Assembly (NCBI GenBank): GCA_019704295.1
Contig: AP024596.1
Location: 1,600,001 to 1,664,000 of the forward strand
Length of the DNA: 64,000 bases
Direction: 5' to 3'
Source: Sulfolobales archaeon HS-7
Lineage (GTDB): Archaea > Thermoproteota > Thermoprotei_A > Sulfolobales > Sulfolobaceae
The notes under the pieces were generated by a model that was not told the origin of the DNA, did no database searches, and saw nothing but the letters and a program-made list of their open reading frames with translations. The translations under genes and the position numbers were made by a program. Shown here piece by piece: positions 14,235 to 25,176 of the stretch (position 1 is its first letter; every line of letters begins with the position of its first letter).

Positions 14235-17200
14235 ATGAAGGAAATCATAGGAATGTTAGGGATAGTATTCTTAATTATAGTGATGGTAGAGGTGCTCTCA
14301 ATTTACAGTTCCACATCATCGCAGATCCAAGCGTCGTATATCCAGTCAATATTGACGATGGCGCAAAACTATCCAGAACTAACGTCTACATGGGGAAACG
14401 GAACTCTTGCCTACTATGAGGACTCCGGTGATCAACCCGTCTGTATAGTAGGGGTTGTGTACTTTCCGACGCCGTATGCTCAACCTTTCGTGCTGGATTT
14501 CAACTATACGGATTCCAGCATTCCAGCGTTCGCCTCTCCAAGCCTGATCCCTTCAAAGTGTTACGCTACGTTCCTTAACGTTTACTCAGTGCCTCAGGGA
14601 AGCGGATTCAAACTATTAACGAATGGGGTAGTTGAGAAAGGCAAAGTACTTCTCTCTCCAGGAGATATAATAGCCGTTCCCTACGAATCCGGATCGGTGG
14701 CCTTCATATCCTCCACTGGGTTATCGTTTTATTACCCCAATTTGCCTAGAGAAGTAACTATAAATGGAGATCAGATTGAAAAGAGCAACAGTCTTGTTTT
14801 AAGTAAATTAAATACAACTCTTAACAGTGTAATAAAAGAGGCTGAGAATTCGTTTTACTCAAAGGATTTCAGCTATCTCGAAGTTAAGGTATACAGCGTT
14901 AATAATCAAGGAACGAAAAGCCCTAGTGTAATAGTATATCTAGGTAATGGAGCTCATTACGTTGTTAAAACAGATGAGAAGATACTAGTGGATCAATGTA
15001 CCTTGGTTACCCTTGTAGCGAACACCTCGCCCTGCTATTCGTTTTCTAGATGGGGGGGAATTCCCTCAAAAACACTTAATAATCATGGACTGATAGAAAC
15101 GTTCATGTTTAAGGGTCAGCAAACGGTATGTGCGTATTTCAACCAGTTTTCTCCGAAGACTTTCCTAAACGGAAACTTTTATTCAAACGTAAGCGTAGTC
15201 TTCGAATGGCCGGGCACAGGAGCTCCCATAGGAGGATACGCCACGATATCAAACGGAGGAAAGAGCTTAAACATATCGAATAACGCGACTTTCTGTGCGA
15301 GCTTAGATACCAAGTTAACGCTAACTCCTAACTCGTTCTGCCTTGGACTCGAATCGAGCGGTGGATATGGAAGTTTACGATTCACCCCTGGGGTTACAAA
15401 TAAATTGACTCACGTTGATTACCATCAAGTACATTGTTATGAAAGTAAAACTTCGAAAAAAACCATCAAGTACGACATAGAGAAGGAGGTGGTCTGCTAC
15501 GTCCTTTATGATTCGGCCTTACAAAGCGTACATGCGGGTCTTATAGGACAGAAGAGTTCTAAGAATTGCATTGAATATTGCTTTGTTAACGAAGTTTGCT
15601 TTTACTTCCCATATGTGTACTATAGTATACAGTTTAGAGATATAGCGACTGGTCAAATTGTTAATGCGTCAGGGTTCGATAATACCAGTTTAGTCTATGG
15701 AGCTTACGCTCACGGTCCGTATAGTGGCGTACCGAGGAACAATTGCTACTGGGGACAGGCATCGGTCTTTCAGAATCAAACCTCCCTGATATTCTTTGAC
15801 TCCCTACCAGGAAAACAAAATGAATCTACATTAAATGAATTTAACTCTACTATTACAGCCATTCCGGGAGCGTACTTCAGGAACAACACGGAATTTTCGT
15901 GGATGAACCCCGTTTTTGGAACTACGGGTACATATCCGTTTAAAAACGACACGTGCATATCTACGGCGGAGGTCATTCAGTGCGGAGTAACGCTCTTCTT
16001 CAGGCCCATTGAATTAGTGAAAATAAAGGCTAACGGTGAAGGCTACGTAACGTCGAGTTTCGTAAATGCCCTATCGGGAAAGAATCAGACCCTTGGAATT
16101 AATCCTTATCAATGTGCAATAGCATTAGTTCCATACGGTTACACCCTTAATGTCAGTTCTGACTCCTGGAATTCCCACATTACGTTTAGTTCCGTCACAG
16201 TATCTAACGACTCTCCTCCGACGGAAAGCGTCGTTTACCCAGTTTTCAAGAAATTCAATCCCAGCGACGTAGCCAGTCCCTACTGTTGGAATGGGACAGT
16301 TCCAAGCAGGATCAAAAATGTTATGAATATCAAAGAGGATTCCTTCATAAGCATACCTATCCTGGACTGGGCTACGGTAAGCGTTCAATACAATGGAGAG
16401 GAGACAGCTAAGATAGTACTTGCAACAAATACGGGGGGATTGTTAACTTATACCAACGGAACTCAAGCGGGAATAGTTGTAACTTCGGGAGTTTACGAAC
16501 TTCCCGTTAACTCCATGCTCTACTTCAGTGGAGCACCTTATTTAGGGAACACGTTTTCAAATTGGTCTGGGAACATAACGGAGGTAAGTCGAACCCCATT
16601 CGAGTTATTTAATTCTACGGGAATGGTTCAGAGTTTGCCCAACGGACCCGCGGCATTTTACGTTCCCTCCTTTACGGTAGTGTTAAATTCCAGCATGGGA
16701 ATAACCGCAAACTTCGTCAAAATACCTCCAGCCCTGTTGAATTATTCGGTCAAATTAACGTTTAACCTGCCCGGAAACTACAACGTTACGGGCGAGAACT
16801 CGATCGGCGGAATATCTTATCCCATAGACATTGCTCATTCCCTCAGTGATAGTGATTCAAAAAGTCAAACGTGTTCTTACGTTGACCTCACTGCAGGGAG
16901 TATGGGTTCCGTATTGGTTACGGGGTTCTTTGACGCAGGTAGTAACTACAACACCGGATTCAATGTAGGCCTAAAATCAAATGATAAGAGCTTTTACAGT
17001 TGCACAGTAAGCTTCACCAATTCCCCTAGTAATAATTACGCGATAGGGAACATAAGTTATACTTATATTACTGGATACTATATTGGCGTAATTTACGTAA
17101 CCAGAGGTACAATGGTTAGACCCGCAATAGTTCCAATGTTCTATGGAACGGATTACTCGTCAGTTTTTGACGTCCATAATACGGCATCTGCAGGAGATTG

Positions 17201-19476: not shown

Positions 19477-19810
19477 TCAATTGAGATCGTATTGGCCTTA
19501 TTAAATACGTATAATGATTTACCTTAGACCTTCTATATTGTCGAATGATAGTTTTATACTTCTCCGCACTTTAAAGGGCCGGCACAAAAGCTCTCAACGT
19601 CATTCCTTGAATACGGTTAATGCCAAAGGAGGTAGAGGAAGATACGTTGATCTTTGGAGTCTAGAGGAAGTATACTATATAGATATTACGAGAATCGTCC
19701 GGGAACTTTTGATACATTTTAGGGTTTACAACAGAGTTTGATGCAAATCACACCGGACAGCCAGGTATCGTTTGATCAATCTTTTAATATTTAAACAGGA
19801 AGGTGTATCT

Positions 19811-20513: not shown

Positions 20514-22211
20514 TTATACATTCCCTTCAGTGATTAGGTACTCGCTGGAACTGCCGAGTTCAGCTATTATTCTAACCCAGAGTTCTAAAAACTTATAATA
20601 CGAGGTCTCCTCCCTCCTTAATAGGGAGTTGTAGAGTTCGAATTTATTGCCGAGTATATCCCATGTCGGAAAGTATGGATCCCCGCTAAGAATCCTTCCA
20701 ACTATTTCCTTATATACCTCATAACCCTGTGGATCGAAGTACGATATCCTTTTTCCTATACTTACTAGCCTCTTCGCCACCTGCTCTTTAAAAAGTAACG
20801 ACATGAGAATGGCAAGAACCGTCACTATTAACTGTATACTGTCCCCCGCTAGATCTCCTGGACGCATTATTGGTACACCTGTTTGATGGGACTTAACCAA
20901 AGGATTATTCGTAGATTCCCTCGTCCTTCTCTTAAGGGGAGTTAACTCGCTGTATACGGTTTCTATACGTTCGCCTGACGCGGTACTAACGTAAGCTATA
21001 ACGGTAGGGTTTTTGGAGTTAGGGGTCAGGTAGGTTTTCATTACCTCGCTCAATCCTAAAATAGACGCATCAGGGCTACGTAGAAGGAAAGAAGTATCAA
21101 ACGCTTTGCCTTTTTTCGAAGCGTAACTTATAATTCTCCTGAAGCTTTTATTCTCAGGTATTTCAGTTCTTACCCTTTCACCTTCTAGAGTTCGCTTAAA
21201 CCTATCAAAGAGGAAGTTGTGGATGTTCGCCAGCTGTTCGCTAATATCAAAAGCGCTCATACCTCCTATTAATCCTGAATTATATGCCTCTTCTATGGGG
21301 AAATCTAACGCCGTGTTCGCGGCGTTTATCAATTTAACTCTGCTCACACCAGAATTAAGATATCTCAGGCTTAGGTCCAGAATGTCTTTCGCTATTTCGA
21401 AGCTATTTTCAGGAAGAGATGAGAAATACATCTTCAAGTATTTTTCCTTATTCTCTACATACTCTCTCTCTATTAAGGCCCACGTTAAAGTTTCCACTAG
21501 GGGCGATATAACGGCGGGATAGAAAACCGTAAGGGCGAAATGATGAAGTATTAAATCGTTAATAGTATCTATTATCCTATCGTCCGTTGTGAGGGATTCT
21601 AACGACTGCTCTACTGAAGACAAATTATCCTTTATCCATTTCGAACCGTCATTCATCAAGTTCCGAGGAATCCCAGTTCTTTTGTAAATCTCCTCACCGA
21701 TGAGGAGTTGGTCTAATTCAACTCTCCATGATACCGCCGATATTATTGCAGATAACGAGGACCCGTTGAGAATTCTCCAGTGGCAATGTTCGTGGACTAA
21801 TGTTCTGAATAGTTTAACATTCAAAGCGTTATCGACAGTACTATTTCCCTCCTCTATCGCAAAAGCAGCAGGAAGGGCCACACTATTTAGCCAGTTCCAG
21901 AATTGTTTAGCTGCCTCATCACTATCCCCTGAATTTATACCTATCTCTGAGAGAGAGGTACCCGTCTTGATAACTATCGAATTACCCGTATAGATTCCCT
22001 CGTCAGAGTCGAGTTCTATAAAGGGAATTCCACCTACGTTCTTTTCCTTAAAGGAGTGCGAAAGATTTAGAGTCGTGTTATCGTCAATTATTCCCCTTGA
22101 AATCATCTCTATGGCTTTCAGCTTTAGTGAAGGCGGAGAATTCAAGAGAACGAGACGAGTAAGGGAAGGAAAATGTCTAACGAACCTATAAAACAACGAT
22201 CCTTTACTCAC
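20514..22211 (-). CDS. Hypothetical protein with HEXXH zinc-metallopeptidase motif
   Basis: 565 aa; FRTLVHEHCHW motif. Confidence 0.7.
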   Translation of the reverse strand: MSKGSLFYRFVRHFPSLTRLVLLNSPPSLKLKAIEMISRGIIDDNTTLNLSHSFKEKNVGGIPFIELDSDEGIYTGNSIVIKTGTSLSEIGINSGDSDEAAKQFWNWLNSVALPAAFAIEEGNSTVDNALNVKLFRTLVHEHCHWRILNGSSLSAIISAVSWRVELDQLLIGEEIYKRTGIPRNLMNDGSKWIKDNLSSVEQSLESLTTDDRIIDTINDLILHHFALTVFYPAVISPLVETLTWALIEREYVENKEKYLKMYFSSLPENSFEIAKDILDLSLRYLNSGVSRVKLINAANTALDFPIEEAYNSGLIGGMSAFDISEQLANIHNFLFDRFKRTLEGERVRTEIPENKSFRRIISYASKKGKAFDTSFLLRSPDASILGLSEVMKTYLTPNSKNPTVIAYVSTASGERIETVYSELTPLKRRTRESTNNPLVKSHQTGVPIMRPGDLAGDSIQLIVTVLAILMSLLFKEQVAKRLVSIGKRISYFDPQGYEVYKEIVGRILSGDPYFPTWDILGNKFELYNSLLRREETSYYKFLELWVRIIAELGSSSEYLITEGNV

Positions 22212-22247
22212 TCGTATTTCCTCTTTACTTAAAGTATGTAATATAAC

Positions 22248-22607
22248 CTATTTATTTTTTATGATTTTTTTCTCTATCAAATCTAGGAGTTCGATCTCCT
22301 CTTCTGTTAGCTCATCTACGTGCCTTGCTAATGACGCAGTGTAAAGCTTGACTCTCTTCCTCTTATCTAAGATTATTTGGTTTACCATTTCCTTTCCTGC
22401 ATCAGTAATGGTGTAAACATCAAATTCGTCTCTCACTACTAATCCAGCGTCGACGAGACGTTGTAGCGCTTGCCATACGCTTTTTGGGTTTAGGCCCGTA
22501 CCTCTTGCAATATTAGTTGCTCTTCCCTTTTCCTGTCGAGAGAGAAAGACCAATATCTCTACATCTATCGAACTGGGATCTAAGGCGGAATTTCTCATCT
22601 TGACCAA
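22248..22607 (-). CDS. Winged-helix transcriptional regulator
   Basis: ATNIARGTGLNPKSVWQALQRLVDAGLV...YTITDAG wHTH pattern. Confidence 0.85.
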   Translation of the reverse strand: MVKMRNSALDPSSIDVEILVFLSRQEKGRATNIARGTGLNPKSVWQALQRLVDAGLVVRDEFDVYTITDAGKEMVNQIILDKRKRVKLYTASLARHVDELTEEEIELLDLIEKKIIKNK

Positions 22608-22774
22608 TTAACTATTGTAGGAGGAATTAATAAGATTTTCTATGAAACGAATCTATCTACATACAGAGAGATTTATTATGATATTACGTTAGATCTCTAG
22701 CTACATGTTACATGAACATATACTAAAATAACGCCTTATCTTCCTAGTATAATTTTATTCTTTATTTCGTCATG

Positions 22775-22804
22775 GATTCTATATATAGAAAGATTCTATA
22801 TATA
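22775..22804. promoter_or_regulatory. Direct repeat and palindrome between the divergent wHTH genes
   Basis: GATTCTATATATA at 22775 and 22792; perfect palindrome TTCTATATATAGAA at 22777-22790. Confidence 0.45.
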
Positions 22805-22848
22805 CATAAGCTTTTTAACAGTCACACAATAAGAGAGGTGAGATATAA

Positions 22849-23136
22849 ATGGCATACGGTAAGAAAAGGGATAGGTATGAGCTCATTGGAGATATATTAG
22901 AAACCATCAGACCCGGAGTAAGGAAGACTAGGTTAATGTATCAGGCTAACCTAAGTTTTGACTTAGCAAACAAGTACATAGAGGAGTTAGAGATGAAAGG
23001 TCTCATAATTAAAAGGGCAGACATGTTTTTCTTAACTGAAAGAGGAAAATTAGTTCTAGATAAGTTAAGAAAGTATAATGAGAATAAGCGAAGTATAGAT
23101 CAGATTACAGATTCTCTTGAATATGAGCTTAAGTGA
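22849..23136 (+). CDS. Sso10a/Sac10a-family winged-helix chromatin protein
   Basis: KTRLMYQANLSF...LTERG wHTH followed by a C-terminal coiled coil; 95 aa. Confidence 0.82.
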   Translation: MAYGKKRDRYELIGDILETIRPGVRKTRLMYQANLSFDLANKYIEELEMKGLIIKRADMFFLTERGKLVLDKLRKYNENKRSIDQITDSLEYELK

Positions 23137-23723: not shown

Positions 23724-23745
23724 GAGTATACTCAAGACTCTAGAC
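23724..23745. promoter_or_regulatory. Putative SegB binding site at the segA start
   Basis: Palindrome GAGTATACTC, then GACTCTAGAC directly before the ATG; SegB is known to bind sites upstream of segA. Confidence 0.6.
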
Positions 23746-24405
23746 ATGATAATAACAGTAATTAACCAGAAGGGGGGCGTGGGAAAAACAACTACCTCTG
23801 TTAATTTAGCATATGTTTTATCTAAAAGTAAAAAAGTTGGACTACTCGATCTCGACCCTGAGGGAGGTTCTACAATCTCCTTAGGAATAAGAAAAGCAGA
23901 ACAGGAATTGCCAATAGGAGCGAACTTCATAAACATTCACGGAATCGATCTATTCTACGCTCATGTAGGATTGCTTAATAAAGAAATGAATGGAGAAATA
24001 GATGAAGTTACAAAGGAAATAAAGAGTTCTGAGAATAACCATGATGTTCTTATCATAGATACGCCTCCAAACCTTGGAACGCTTTCCGTGTCCGCTATGT
24101 TAGTAGCAGATAAAGTGATCGCTCCAGTTACTCCTCTATTCCTTTCAATAGAAGCAGTGAAAAATCTGGGTTCTAGACTCCAGAGTCTAGAGAAGAGAGC
24201 CATAGCTTTTACCAACGCTTCTAATAAACCAATTAAAGTCGACCTACAGTCGATTTCGTTTATCGATACATATATTCCGAATTCAAAAATATTTCAAGAA
24301 GCCGTTAGGCTAGGAATACCAGCAACTAAGTATGAAGAGGTAAAGAGCAAAAAAGGTAAAATTTGGAGTTCTTATGATAAATTATCTAAATATATTATAG
24401 AATGA
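23746..24405 (+). CDS. segA: Chromosome segregation ATPase SegA (ParA family)
   Basis: Deviant Walker A KGGVGKTT, DLDPEG and IIDTPPNLG motifs; close resemblance to Sulfolobus SegA; followed by segB. Confidence 0.93.
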   Translation: MIITVINQKGGVGKTTTSVNLAYVLSKSKKVGLLDLDPEGGSTISLGIRKAEQELPIGANFINIHGIDLFYAHVGLLNKEMNGEIDEVTKEIKSSENNHDVLIIDTPPNLGTLSVSAMLVADKVIAPVTPLFLSIEAVKNLGSRLQSLEKRAIAFTNASNKPIKVDLQSISFIDTYIPNSKIFQEAVRLGIPATKYEEVKSKKGKIWSSYDKLSKYIIE

Positions 24406-24417
24406 GGCTATAAGAAA

Positions 24418-25176
24418 ATGAGTGATATATCTCTTATTTTAAACAAAAAACGAAAAAAGGAAGAGAAGGGTCTAGAGTCCACACTGAAGAGAGAGGAAGA
24501 GAAGGGTCTAGAGTCCACACTGAAGAGAGAGGAAGAGAAGGGTCTAGAGTCCACACTGAAGAGAGAGGAAGAGAAGGGTCTAGAGTCCACACTGAAGAGA
24601 GAGGAAGAGAAGGGTCTAGAGTCCACACTGAAGAGAGAGGAAGAGAAGGGTCTAGAGTCCACACTGAAGAGAGAGGAAGAGAAGGGTCTAGAGTCCACAC
24701 TGAAGAGAGAGGAAGAGAAGGGTCTAGAGTCCACACTGAAGAGAGAGGAAGAGAAGGGTCTAGAGTCCACACTGAAGAGAGAGGAAGAGAAGGGTCTAGA
24801 GTCCACACTGAAGAGAGAGGAAGAGAAGGGTCTAGAGTCCACACTGAAGAGAGAGGAAGAGAAGGGTCTAGAGTCCACACTGAAGAGAGAGGAAGAGAAG
24901 GGTCTAGAGTCCACACTGAAGAGAGAGGAAGAGACCTCTCCAAAGAGTGAGGGTTCCGAAACTTATAAAATTATGTCGACCCTCATTGGTAAGGACCCTA
25001 AGATAGGAGTATGGAGTTATCCCTCATATTTGGTACTTCAATACCTATATTCTACAAAACCTGGATTTAGAATAGGGAAAACGGCAAAGGAGGCACTTGA
25101 ACGAGGGCTCATGCAAATGTATCCAGAGCTTTTTTCAATTGCAGAGGAGGTAGTTAAAAAACACAAATTCCAATAG
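24418..25176 (+). CDS. segB: SegB centromere-binding ribbon-helix-helix protein with a 13x12-aa repeat insertion
   Basis: C-terminal KDPKIGVWSYP..LVLQYLY.T.PGF...AKEALE.GL..MYP.LF signature; directly downstream of segA. Confidence 0.9.
   Translation: MSDISLILNKKRKKEEKGLESTLKREEEKGLESTLKREEEKGLESTLKREEEKGLESTLKREEEKGLESTLKREEEKGLESTLKREEEKGLESTLKREEEKGLESTLKREEEKGLESTLKREEEKGLESTLKREEEKGLESTLKREEEKGLESTLKREEEKGLESTLKREEETSPKSEGSETYKIMSTLIGKDPKIGVWSYPSYLVLQYLYSTKPGFRIGKTAKEALERGLMQMYPELFSIAEEVVKKHKFQ
24460..24934 (+). repeat. Perfect tandem repeat, 13 x 36 bp plus a 7-bp partial unit
   Basis: Unit GAAGAGAAGGGTCTAGAGTCCACACTGAAGAGAGAG; no spacers and no variation seen. Confidence 0.97.

Follow-up and report, generated by a model that had tools for sequence, protein, structure and literature searches.

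In Sulfolobales, the SegAB system pairs the ATPase SegA with the ribbon-helix-helix (RHH) adaptor SegB, which binds a 13-bp motif of two TCTAGA hexamers spaced by one G/C; most of these sites are intragenic and cluster around segAB (PMC12284271, PMC12858884). One SegB dimer binds each half-site, with neighbouring dimers stacking into a corkscrew through a loop containing Tyr68 and Pro72 (PMC8682754), and SegB plus site DNA stimulates the SegA ATPase and bridges distant sites (PMC8682754, PMC12284271). SegB ranges from about 100 to over 300 residues, with length varying at one spot, and two 2025 papers addressed this variation at the protein level (i.e., a β-helix, unknown domains, phase separation). 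In Metallosphaera, this position carries 14-residue repeats, read either as a β-helix (PMC12284271) or as domains of unknown function born by slippage at G[A]n tracts (PMC12139799). In the δ-ω-parS partition system of plasmid pSM19035 (type Ib; PMC9499535), a ParA ATPase also acts with an RHH adaptor that binds one dimer per 7-bp repeat; there, contiguous heptad arrays overlap promoters and are not translated, the heptad is nonpalindromic, and at least four contiguous repeats are needed for full ATPase stimulation. In Bacillus subtilis, a parS site lies within parB (spo0J), a centromere site in the gene of the protein that binds it, but this is a single 16-bp site for an HTH, CTP-dependent clamp and not an amplified array making up most of the coding sequence.

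Here, we analysed a 64,000-nt stretch ("the window") of the Sulfolobales archaeon HS-7 genome (GCA_019704295.1; contig AP024596.1, positions 1,600,001 to 1,664,000, forward strand), in which segB holds 13 in-frame copies of what is very probably the binding site of SegB itself. The features of the locus are as follows (window coordinates).

19652-19666 (no strand assigned): isolated weaker motif match upstream of the operon (12.6 bits); others lie at 15625 and 7933
23724-23745 (plus strand): segS/S1-type site directly before the segA start, three 7-bp steps ending at the ATG; joint best matrix score in the genome (18.8 bits), at a position conserved in about 40 orthologous promoters
23746-24405 (plus strand): segA, ParA-type Walker ATPase, 219 aa (AAA_31, E 2e-29), about 58% identical to S. 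solfataricus SegA
24171-24198 (plus strand): putative dual-coding SegB site chain inside segA (codons 142-151), the best three-step chain in the genome; the orthologous position is a ChIP peak in S. solfataricus (B-11) and S. acidocaldarius (peak 13)
24418-25176 (plus strand): segB, 252 aa, with a conserved N-terminal peptide, a 12-residue repeat linker, and a C-terminal RHH domain
24418-24459 (plus strand): conserved N-terminal peptide of SegB (the SegA-contacting region in S. solfataricus; PMC8682754)
24458-24934 (plus strand): 13.2 identical 36-bp units in frame, each being five 7-bp steps plus one base (register starting at 24463)
24470-24484 (plus strand): first copy of the strong 15-bp predicted site (two half-sites, 15.0-15.4 bits), repeated every 36 bp up to 24902-24916, with overlapping weaker sites 7 bp to either side
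24964-25161 (plus strand): RHH DNA-binding domain (residues 183-248)

The array noticed in the preliminary description is genuine. Tandem Repeats Finder (TRF) detected a single array in the window, with period 36, 13.2 copies, 100% identity, and no indels, encoding a 12-residue repeat over about residues 14-172. As claimed beforehand, the 10-mer GTCTAGAGTC is present in each unit and, reversed, at 23736-23745 directly before the segA ATG; it occurs 14 times in the 2,151,177-bp genome (39.6% GC), i.e., 13 times in segB and once at this promoter. The S. solfataricus site cited there was also correct (S1 oligonucleotide in PMC8682754; orthologous promoter in locus L029), with the unit differing from it by one base. 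Two corrections are required: (i) the array occupies only 24458-24934 and not the whole of 24418-25176, and (ii) the property of "spreading" ascribed to SegB holds only locally in vitro, as ChIP peaks are narrow with no long-range spreading (PMC12284271). A Pfam β-solenoid hit on the repeat was below the cut-off and was rejected, as were long minus-strand ORFs (24408-24914 and 24434-24943), which follow from a stop-free repeat, and a sigma-70 promoter scan, which is not suited to archaea. That the array, or its length, comes from the assembler is very unlikely, as the genome is a closed hybrid assembly with 1.0 Gb of nanopore reads (N50 of 6.6 kb) and 301-bp Illumina reads (PMC8459659), far longer than 477 bp, with a neighbouring gene found in run DRR286851; moreover, frame and both flanks are intact, and perfect arrays sit at the same codon in four other complete genomes. 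The exact count of 13 is nonetheless less certain than the array itself. No close relative with the same unit was detected: a pattern scan of the metagenome collection was empty, a homologue search gave two distant proteins, and the exact protein was absent from the protein collection searched.

To evaluate whether the unit resembles a SegB site, we trained a 15-bp matrix on 39 published ChIP peak regions from S. acidocaldarius and S. solfataricus, fetched from genomes G038 and G028, which reproduce the published coordinates (G028 with an offset of 965); peaks overlapping segB were left out. The site at 24470+36n scores 15.4 bits, above the ChIP peak median of 12.4, and ranks 4th in the genome behind the segA promoter site, a site inside segA, and one distant site; matrices from either species alone give ranks 4 and 7. 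With only three positions outside the array scoring as high, a random 36-mer would hold such a site with P about 5e-5. None of the about 20 other tandem-repeat entries in the genome scores above 7.1 bits, against 15.0 for this array; other near-perfect tandem arrays outside the window (contig C1 of genome G000: 1388320-1388657, 1401857-1402324, 1473686-1474212, and 345747-345963) have periods that are multiples of three (54, 126, 120, and 63 bp), but none carries the SegB motif. Relative to the 13-bp consensus, the only three one-mismatch matches in the genome are the segA promoter site (23732; site 23731-23745) and two inside segA (24172 and 24179), indicating that the motif is in use here, while the unit matches at 11 of 13 positions. 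The five steps per unit score -2.3, 10.0, 4.9, 5.9, and -0.9 bits; three are thus good half-sites, whereas two fall below zero on the palindromic matrix. The three best three-step chains in the genome are the one inside segA, the array, and S1. With the peptide held fixed and codons redrawn, the motif match exceeds synonymous recoding (p 0.015), and also codon-order shuffling (p 0.002). The purine-rich half of the unit resembles (12 of 15 bases) purine-rich direct repeats with a 7-bp step that are bound in vivo at S. solfataricus ChIP peak C (locus L062, 9323-9495) and S. acidocaldarius peaks at 160700 and 167624, which are probably the segSR site (PMC12858884); this likeness is suggestive only.

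The protein and operon are those of a SegAB system. A ParA-type ATPase gene lies directly upstream, the last 66 residues of SegB match S. solfataricus SegB structures 7DUV/7DV2 (E 1e-25; RHH domain 68% identical over 62 residues), and the K-D-P-K-I-G-V-W-S-Y-P signature defined in PMC12139799 is present. Residues for DNA reading and dimer stacking are largely kept: K195, W199, Y211, P215, and K224 match S. solfataricus K52, W56, Y68, P72, and K81, while K75 and R78 are conservatively replaced by R and K, and S77 is changed to G, such that three DNA-contacting residues differ. The S1 site before segA and the site inside segA are likewise shared; the latter is kept at about segA codons 140-147 in most Sulfolobaceae and has grown in HS-7 to the best chain in the genome. 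The dispersed cluster of SegB sites over 20-25 kb, typical but not strictly defining of these systems, is however missing from HS-7: outside the operon, 24 of 26 relatives carry 2.7-12.2 sites per 10 kb within about 10 kb of segAB (with none in control regions), while HS-7 carries 1.1, near the 0.6 expected by chance, and no other cluster was found in the genome. The array thus holds 13 of the 55 genome positions at 12 bits or more, and, with the top chains all lying at segAB, this is the unique, densest site cluster of the replicon. Orthologues of the neighbour genes of five relatives lie elsewhere in HS-7, and no SegC was found at E 1e-15; instead, upstream of segA (20514-23136) lie two small winged-helix genes (22248-22607, minus strand; 22849-23136, plus strand) and a 565-aa ORF without a Pfam hit. 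As to closeness to a replication origin, in a search limited to cdc6 genes and leaving out any third, WhiP-type origin, the two copies lie at 751 kb and 2,010 kb, with segAB at 1,624 kb. A general trade-off between linker sites and flanking sites was looked for and not found: Metallosphaera have both array and cluster, while two relatives (genomes G006 and G018) have no cluster and no perfect array, so the HS-7 arrangement is a fit and not a proof.

The preliminary description had proposed a comparison of segB codons with segA promoters across relatives, and this came out positive across Sulfolobaceae as well as in distant cassettes. Linkers were cut from 44 Sulfolobaceae segB genes, using one unit for perfect arrays; one genome (G040) was dropped through a pattern miss and another (G021) is cut by its contig end. 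Of 30 linkers from proteins of 125 aa or more, 21 hold a phased 7-bp half-site chain at p <= 0.02 against codon-order shuffles, versus 0 of 14 short linkers, which give less power. Among 250 E/K/R-rich coding windows of HS-7 the rate is 2.4%, with two of those six being the array in another frame. Column-shuffled matrices never reach the observed mean for long linkers (0 of 500) and do so freely for short ones. Nonrepetitive linkers show excess identity at lags 7 and 14 (combined z up to 7.6), though lag 5 is also raised in some GA-rich ones. The synonymous test combined over nine genus medians gives p 9e-5 for long and 0.59 for short linkers, an overstatement given that genera are kin, and one genus with mid-length linkers (g10) is negative. 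In S. acidocaldarius, a published ChIP peak (PMC12284271 Suppl. Table 2, peak 12) covers the segA end and the segB 5' linker, with its called site in the linker. In genus g3 (loci L014, L018-L020, L026, and L035), a further motif match lies inside the RHH-coding part of segB (Ala-Leu-Glu-Tyr-Gly codons), mostly above synonymous expectation (p 0.01-0.03 in five of six).

The repeats of Metallosphaera-type SegB, a perfect in-frame tandem insertion at the same position after the N-terminal peptide, follow the same step. Four such 42-bp units are exactly 6 x 7 bp with G/C at every seventh base, although their peptides differ, which explains the 14-residue period, 21 bp being the shortest unit to keep both reading frame and 7-bp phase. 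A plain mismatch count against the 13-bp consensus missed these units (4 mismatches); they appear only with the trained matrix and the 7-bp period test and are thus weaker matches than the HS-7 unit, with that of genome G019 not significant (chain p 0.11). An initial notion that the Metallosphaera peptide VESR encodes the perfect palindrome was ruled out, as the Ser codon is AGT. The HS-7 unit does not belong to this repeat domain at the protein level, having 12 residues of unrelated sequence, a predicted single α-helix, and a long separate branch in the tree. It could be argued that the repeat is kept as a long charged spacer of about 165 residues between the SegA-binding tip and the DNA-binding domain, with the motif match a by-product of Leu-Glu-Ser codons. 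AlphaFold2 without an alignment indeed gives one helix over residues 3-170 (pLDDT about 85-92), and a structural role was proposed for the Metallosphaera repeats; however, pTM is 0.27 and long helices are a default prediction for charged repeats. With the protein held fixed, codon choice still favours the motif, and a 7-bp period cuts across codon positions and cannot come from a peptide repeat; moreover, unit length, sequence, and predicted fold differ between lineages while the DNA step does not, which argues that no fold is being kept. Selection at the protein level is thus considered very unlikely.

A profile search revealed distant SegB-like proteins, several with 7-residue-periodic linkers made of other words, and those with enough upstream DNA sit behind a ParA gene. 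In five such cassettes (loci L090, L092, L094, L097, and L102), the linker DNA has a 7-bp period (z 6-12), and a 7-bp array of the same word lies before parA, with TAATTA-like, TTGCAA-like, TCATGA-like, and TTCTAA/TTATAA-like hexamers after a G/C. Matrices built from the last 45 bp of each promoter alone score their own linker highest (55, 168, 57, 59, and 34 bits, respectively), against 5-20 bits on the Sulfolobales matrix (p 0.003 against synonymous recoding); related words cross-score, as expected, with L097 at 59 versus 57 bits on the near-identical L102 word. As these proteins were picked because their linkers looked periodic, they show that the word tracks the promoter and not how common this is. 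The pattern is not universal, as Methanobacteriales-type SegBs (grouped by motif) have long linkers without a 7-residue period (1 of 36; locus L103 also negative), such that the linker also grows without sites.

Taken together, the interpretation offered in the preliminary description, of a dual-coding repeat acting as both a centromere-like array and an autorepression site, is partly supported: dual coding is strongly supported by sequence evidence, and we consider it very probable both that SegB binds the array and that linker DNA is under selection for sites across the family. Our analysis demonstrates the 7-bp stepped build of the unit (G/C plus a TCTAGA-like hexamer), its sharing of register and word with the segA promoter and the site inside segA, and the same construction in long linkers of many relatives, each from its own promoter word; binding by HS-7 SegB, a centromere or autoregulatory role, and any benefit of 13 copies over one are matters of inference. 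We favour (probability of roughly 0.6) a model in which the array serves as a loading platform for the SegAB segregation complex. The linker would tolerate almost any hydrophilic sequence, allowing selection on the DNA to write half-sites into it, with frame-keeping duplications then multiplying them; units of 21 or 42 bp keep both frame and phase, while the 36-bp unit slips one base per unit. SegB dimers would load step by step along the array, S1, and the segA site, stack (via a loop that is conserved here) and bridge, and present their N-terminal tips to SegA; by analogy with ω-parS, each unit would offer one block of up to five steps. With segAB having left its usual neighbourhood and lacking the dispersed cluster, about 39 good half-sites in 0.48 kb would supply most of the local SegB load, i.e., a compact centromere carried inside the operon, with the longer protein mostly a by-product. 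Tempering this model, S. solfataricus and 13 other genomes with short SegBs have no linker sites, so the feature is dispensable, and a protein-coated array in a transcribed gene may be cleared by RNA polymerase.

Alternatively, SegB bound inside its own coding sequence may block elongation after segA has been transcribed and so set the SegB:SegA ratio, with copy number tuning the feedback. Sites at the promoter, inside segA, and densest at the start of segB are consistent with such a role, as is confinement of the word in the distant cassettes to promoter and linker (39-73 per kb, against 3-6 per kb elsewhere); SegA:SegB balance also matters (PMC12284271), and ω binds heptad arrays that overlap promoters (PMC9499535). 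However, repression by SegB has not been shown in any species, with autorepression left open in PMC12284271, and most SegB sites are intragenic in unrelated genes, which those authors read as structural. We thus view autoregulation as unlikely to be the main function, though the two roles are not exclusive. It is also possible, but doubtful, that one ordinary intragenic site in a slippage-prone GA-rich linker was copied 13 times, with SegB binding but the array doing nothing that one site would not. Slippage at G[A]n tracts was proposed for this exact spot (PMC12139799), and with one unit the protein would be 108 aa, the size of the short family members. All 13 copies are identical, so the expansion is recent or homogenised and selection on copy number cannot be read; unit number also varies among Metallosphaera entries (full-length proteins of 157, 171, 185, and 269 aa), through real instability or short-read collapse. 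Neutral amplification does not explain long, nonrepetitive, 7-bp-phased chains with diverged hexamers (up to 21 steps in genome G024; period z 3-7), nor the switch of word with the promoter in distant cassettes, but it can still hold for the copy number in HS-7 alone.

SegB sites inside segAB and repeat expansion of the linker were each already published; what is new, as far as our literature searches for a prior statement reach, is that the linker and its repeats are arrays of the protein's own predicted sites and follow its word across lineages. More tentatively, and somewhat less likely than not, this may reflect a general design rule for SegB-like partition adaptors in which the variable linker is a translated centromere: its 7- or 14-residue period would be the shadow of a 7-bp binding step, and its length would set how many adaptor dimers load. 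The operon would then be a self-contained, portable segregation cassette tuned by repeat number, as in HS-7, where the operon has moved and lost its surrounding sites. The sequence evidence thus points to the DNA in accounting for SegB length, and renders the location of the Sulfolobales centromere, and the control of segregation by site number, approachable through synonymous recoding of the linker. It also warns that segB deletions delete cis sites and that plasmid-borne segB brings them along, and provides a way to read the binding word of uncharacterised archaeal ParA partners from their own genes.

Among the distant SegB-like proteins, one group (P0053, at locus L099, 150-272 and 1083-1295; also P0095, P0163, and P0164) has a 5-residue period in the linker and an 8-bp period in the DNA (z 3.2), with a 16-bp direct repeat of similar words upstream of parA, possibly representing a variant with an 8-bp binding step. 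Distant ParA-SegB-like cassettes at L092 (4630-5680) and L096 (468-926) lie next to ParE-type or HicAB toxin-antitoxin genes, which suggests plasmids or integrated elements. SegB C-terminal domains were also found fused to C2H2-like zinc-finger repeats (P0012, 306 aa) and, by eye, to a restriction-endonuclease-like domain (P0013, 252 aa), while a group of 150-215-aa proteins (P0019, P0027-P0029, P0033, P0042, P0045-P0047, and others) has two tandem SegB-like domains and no linker or N-terminal tip.
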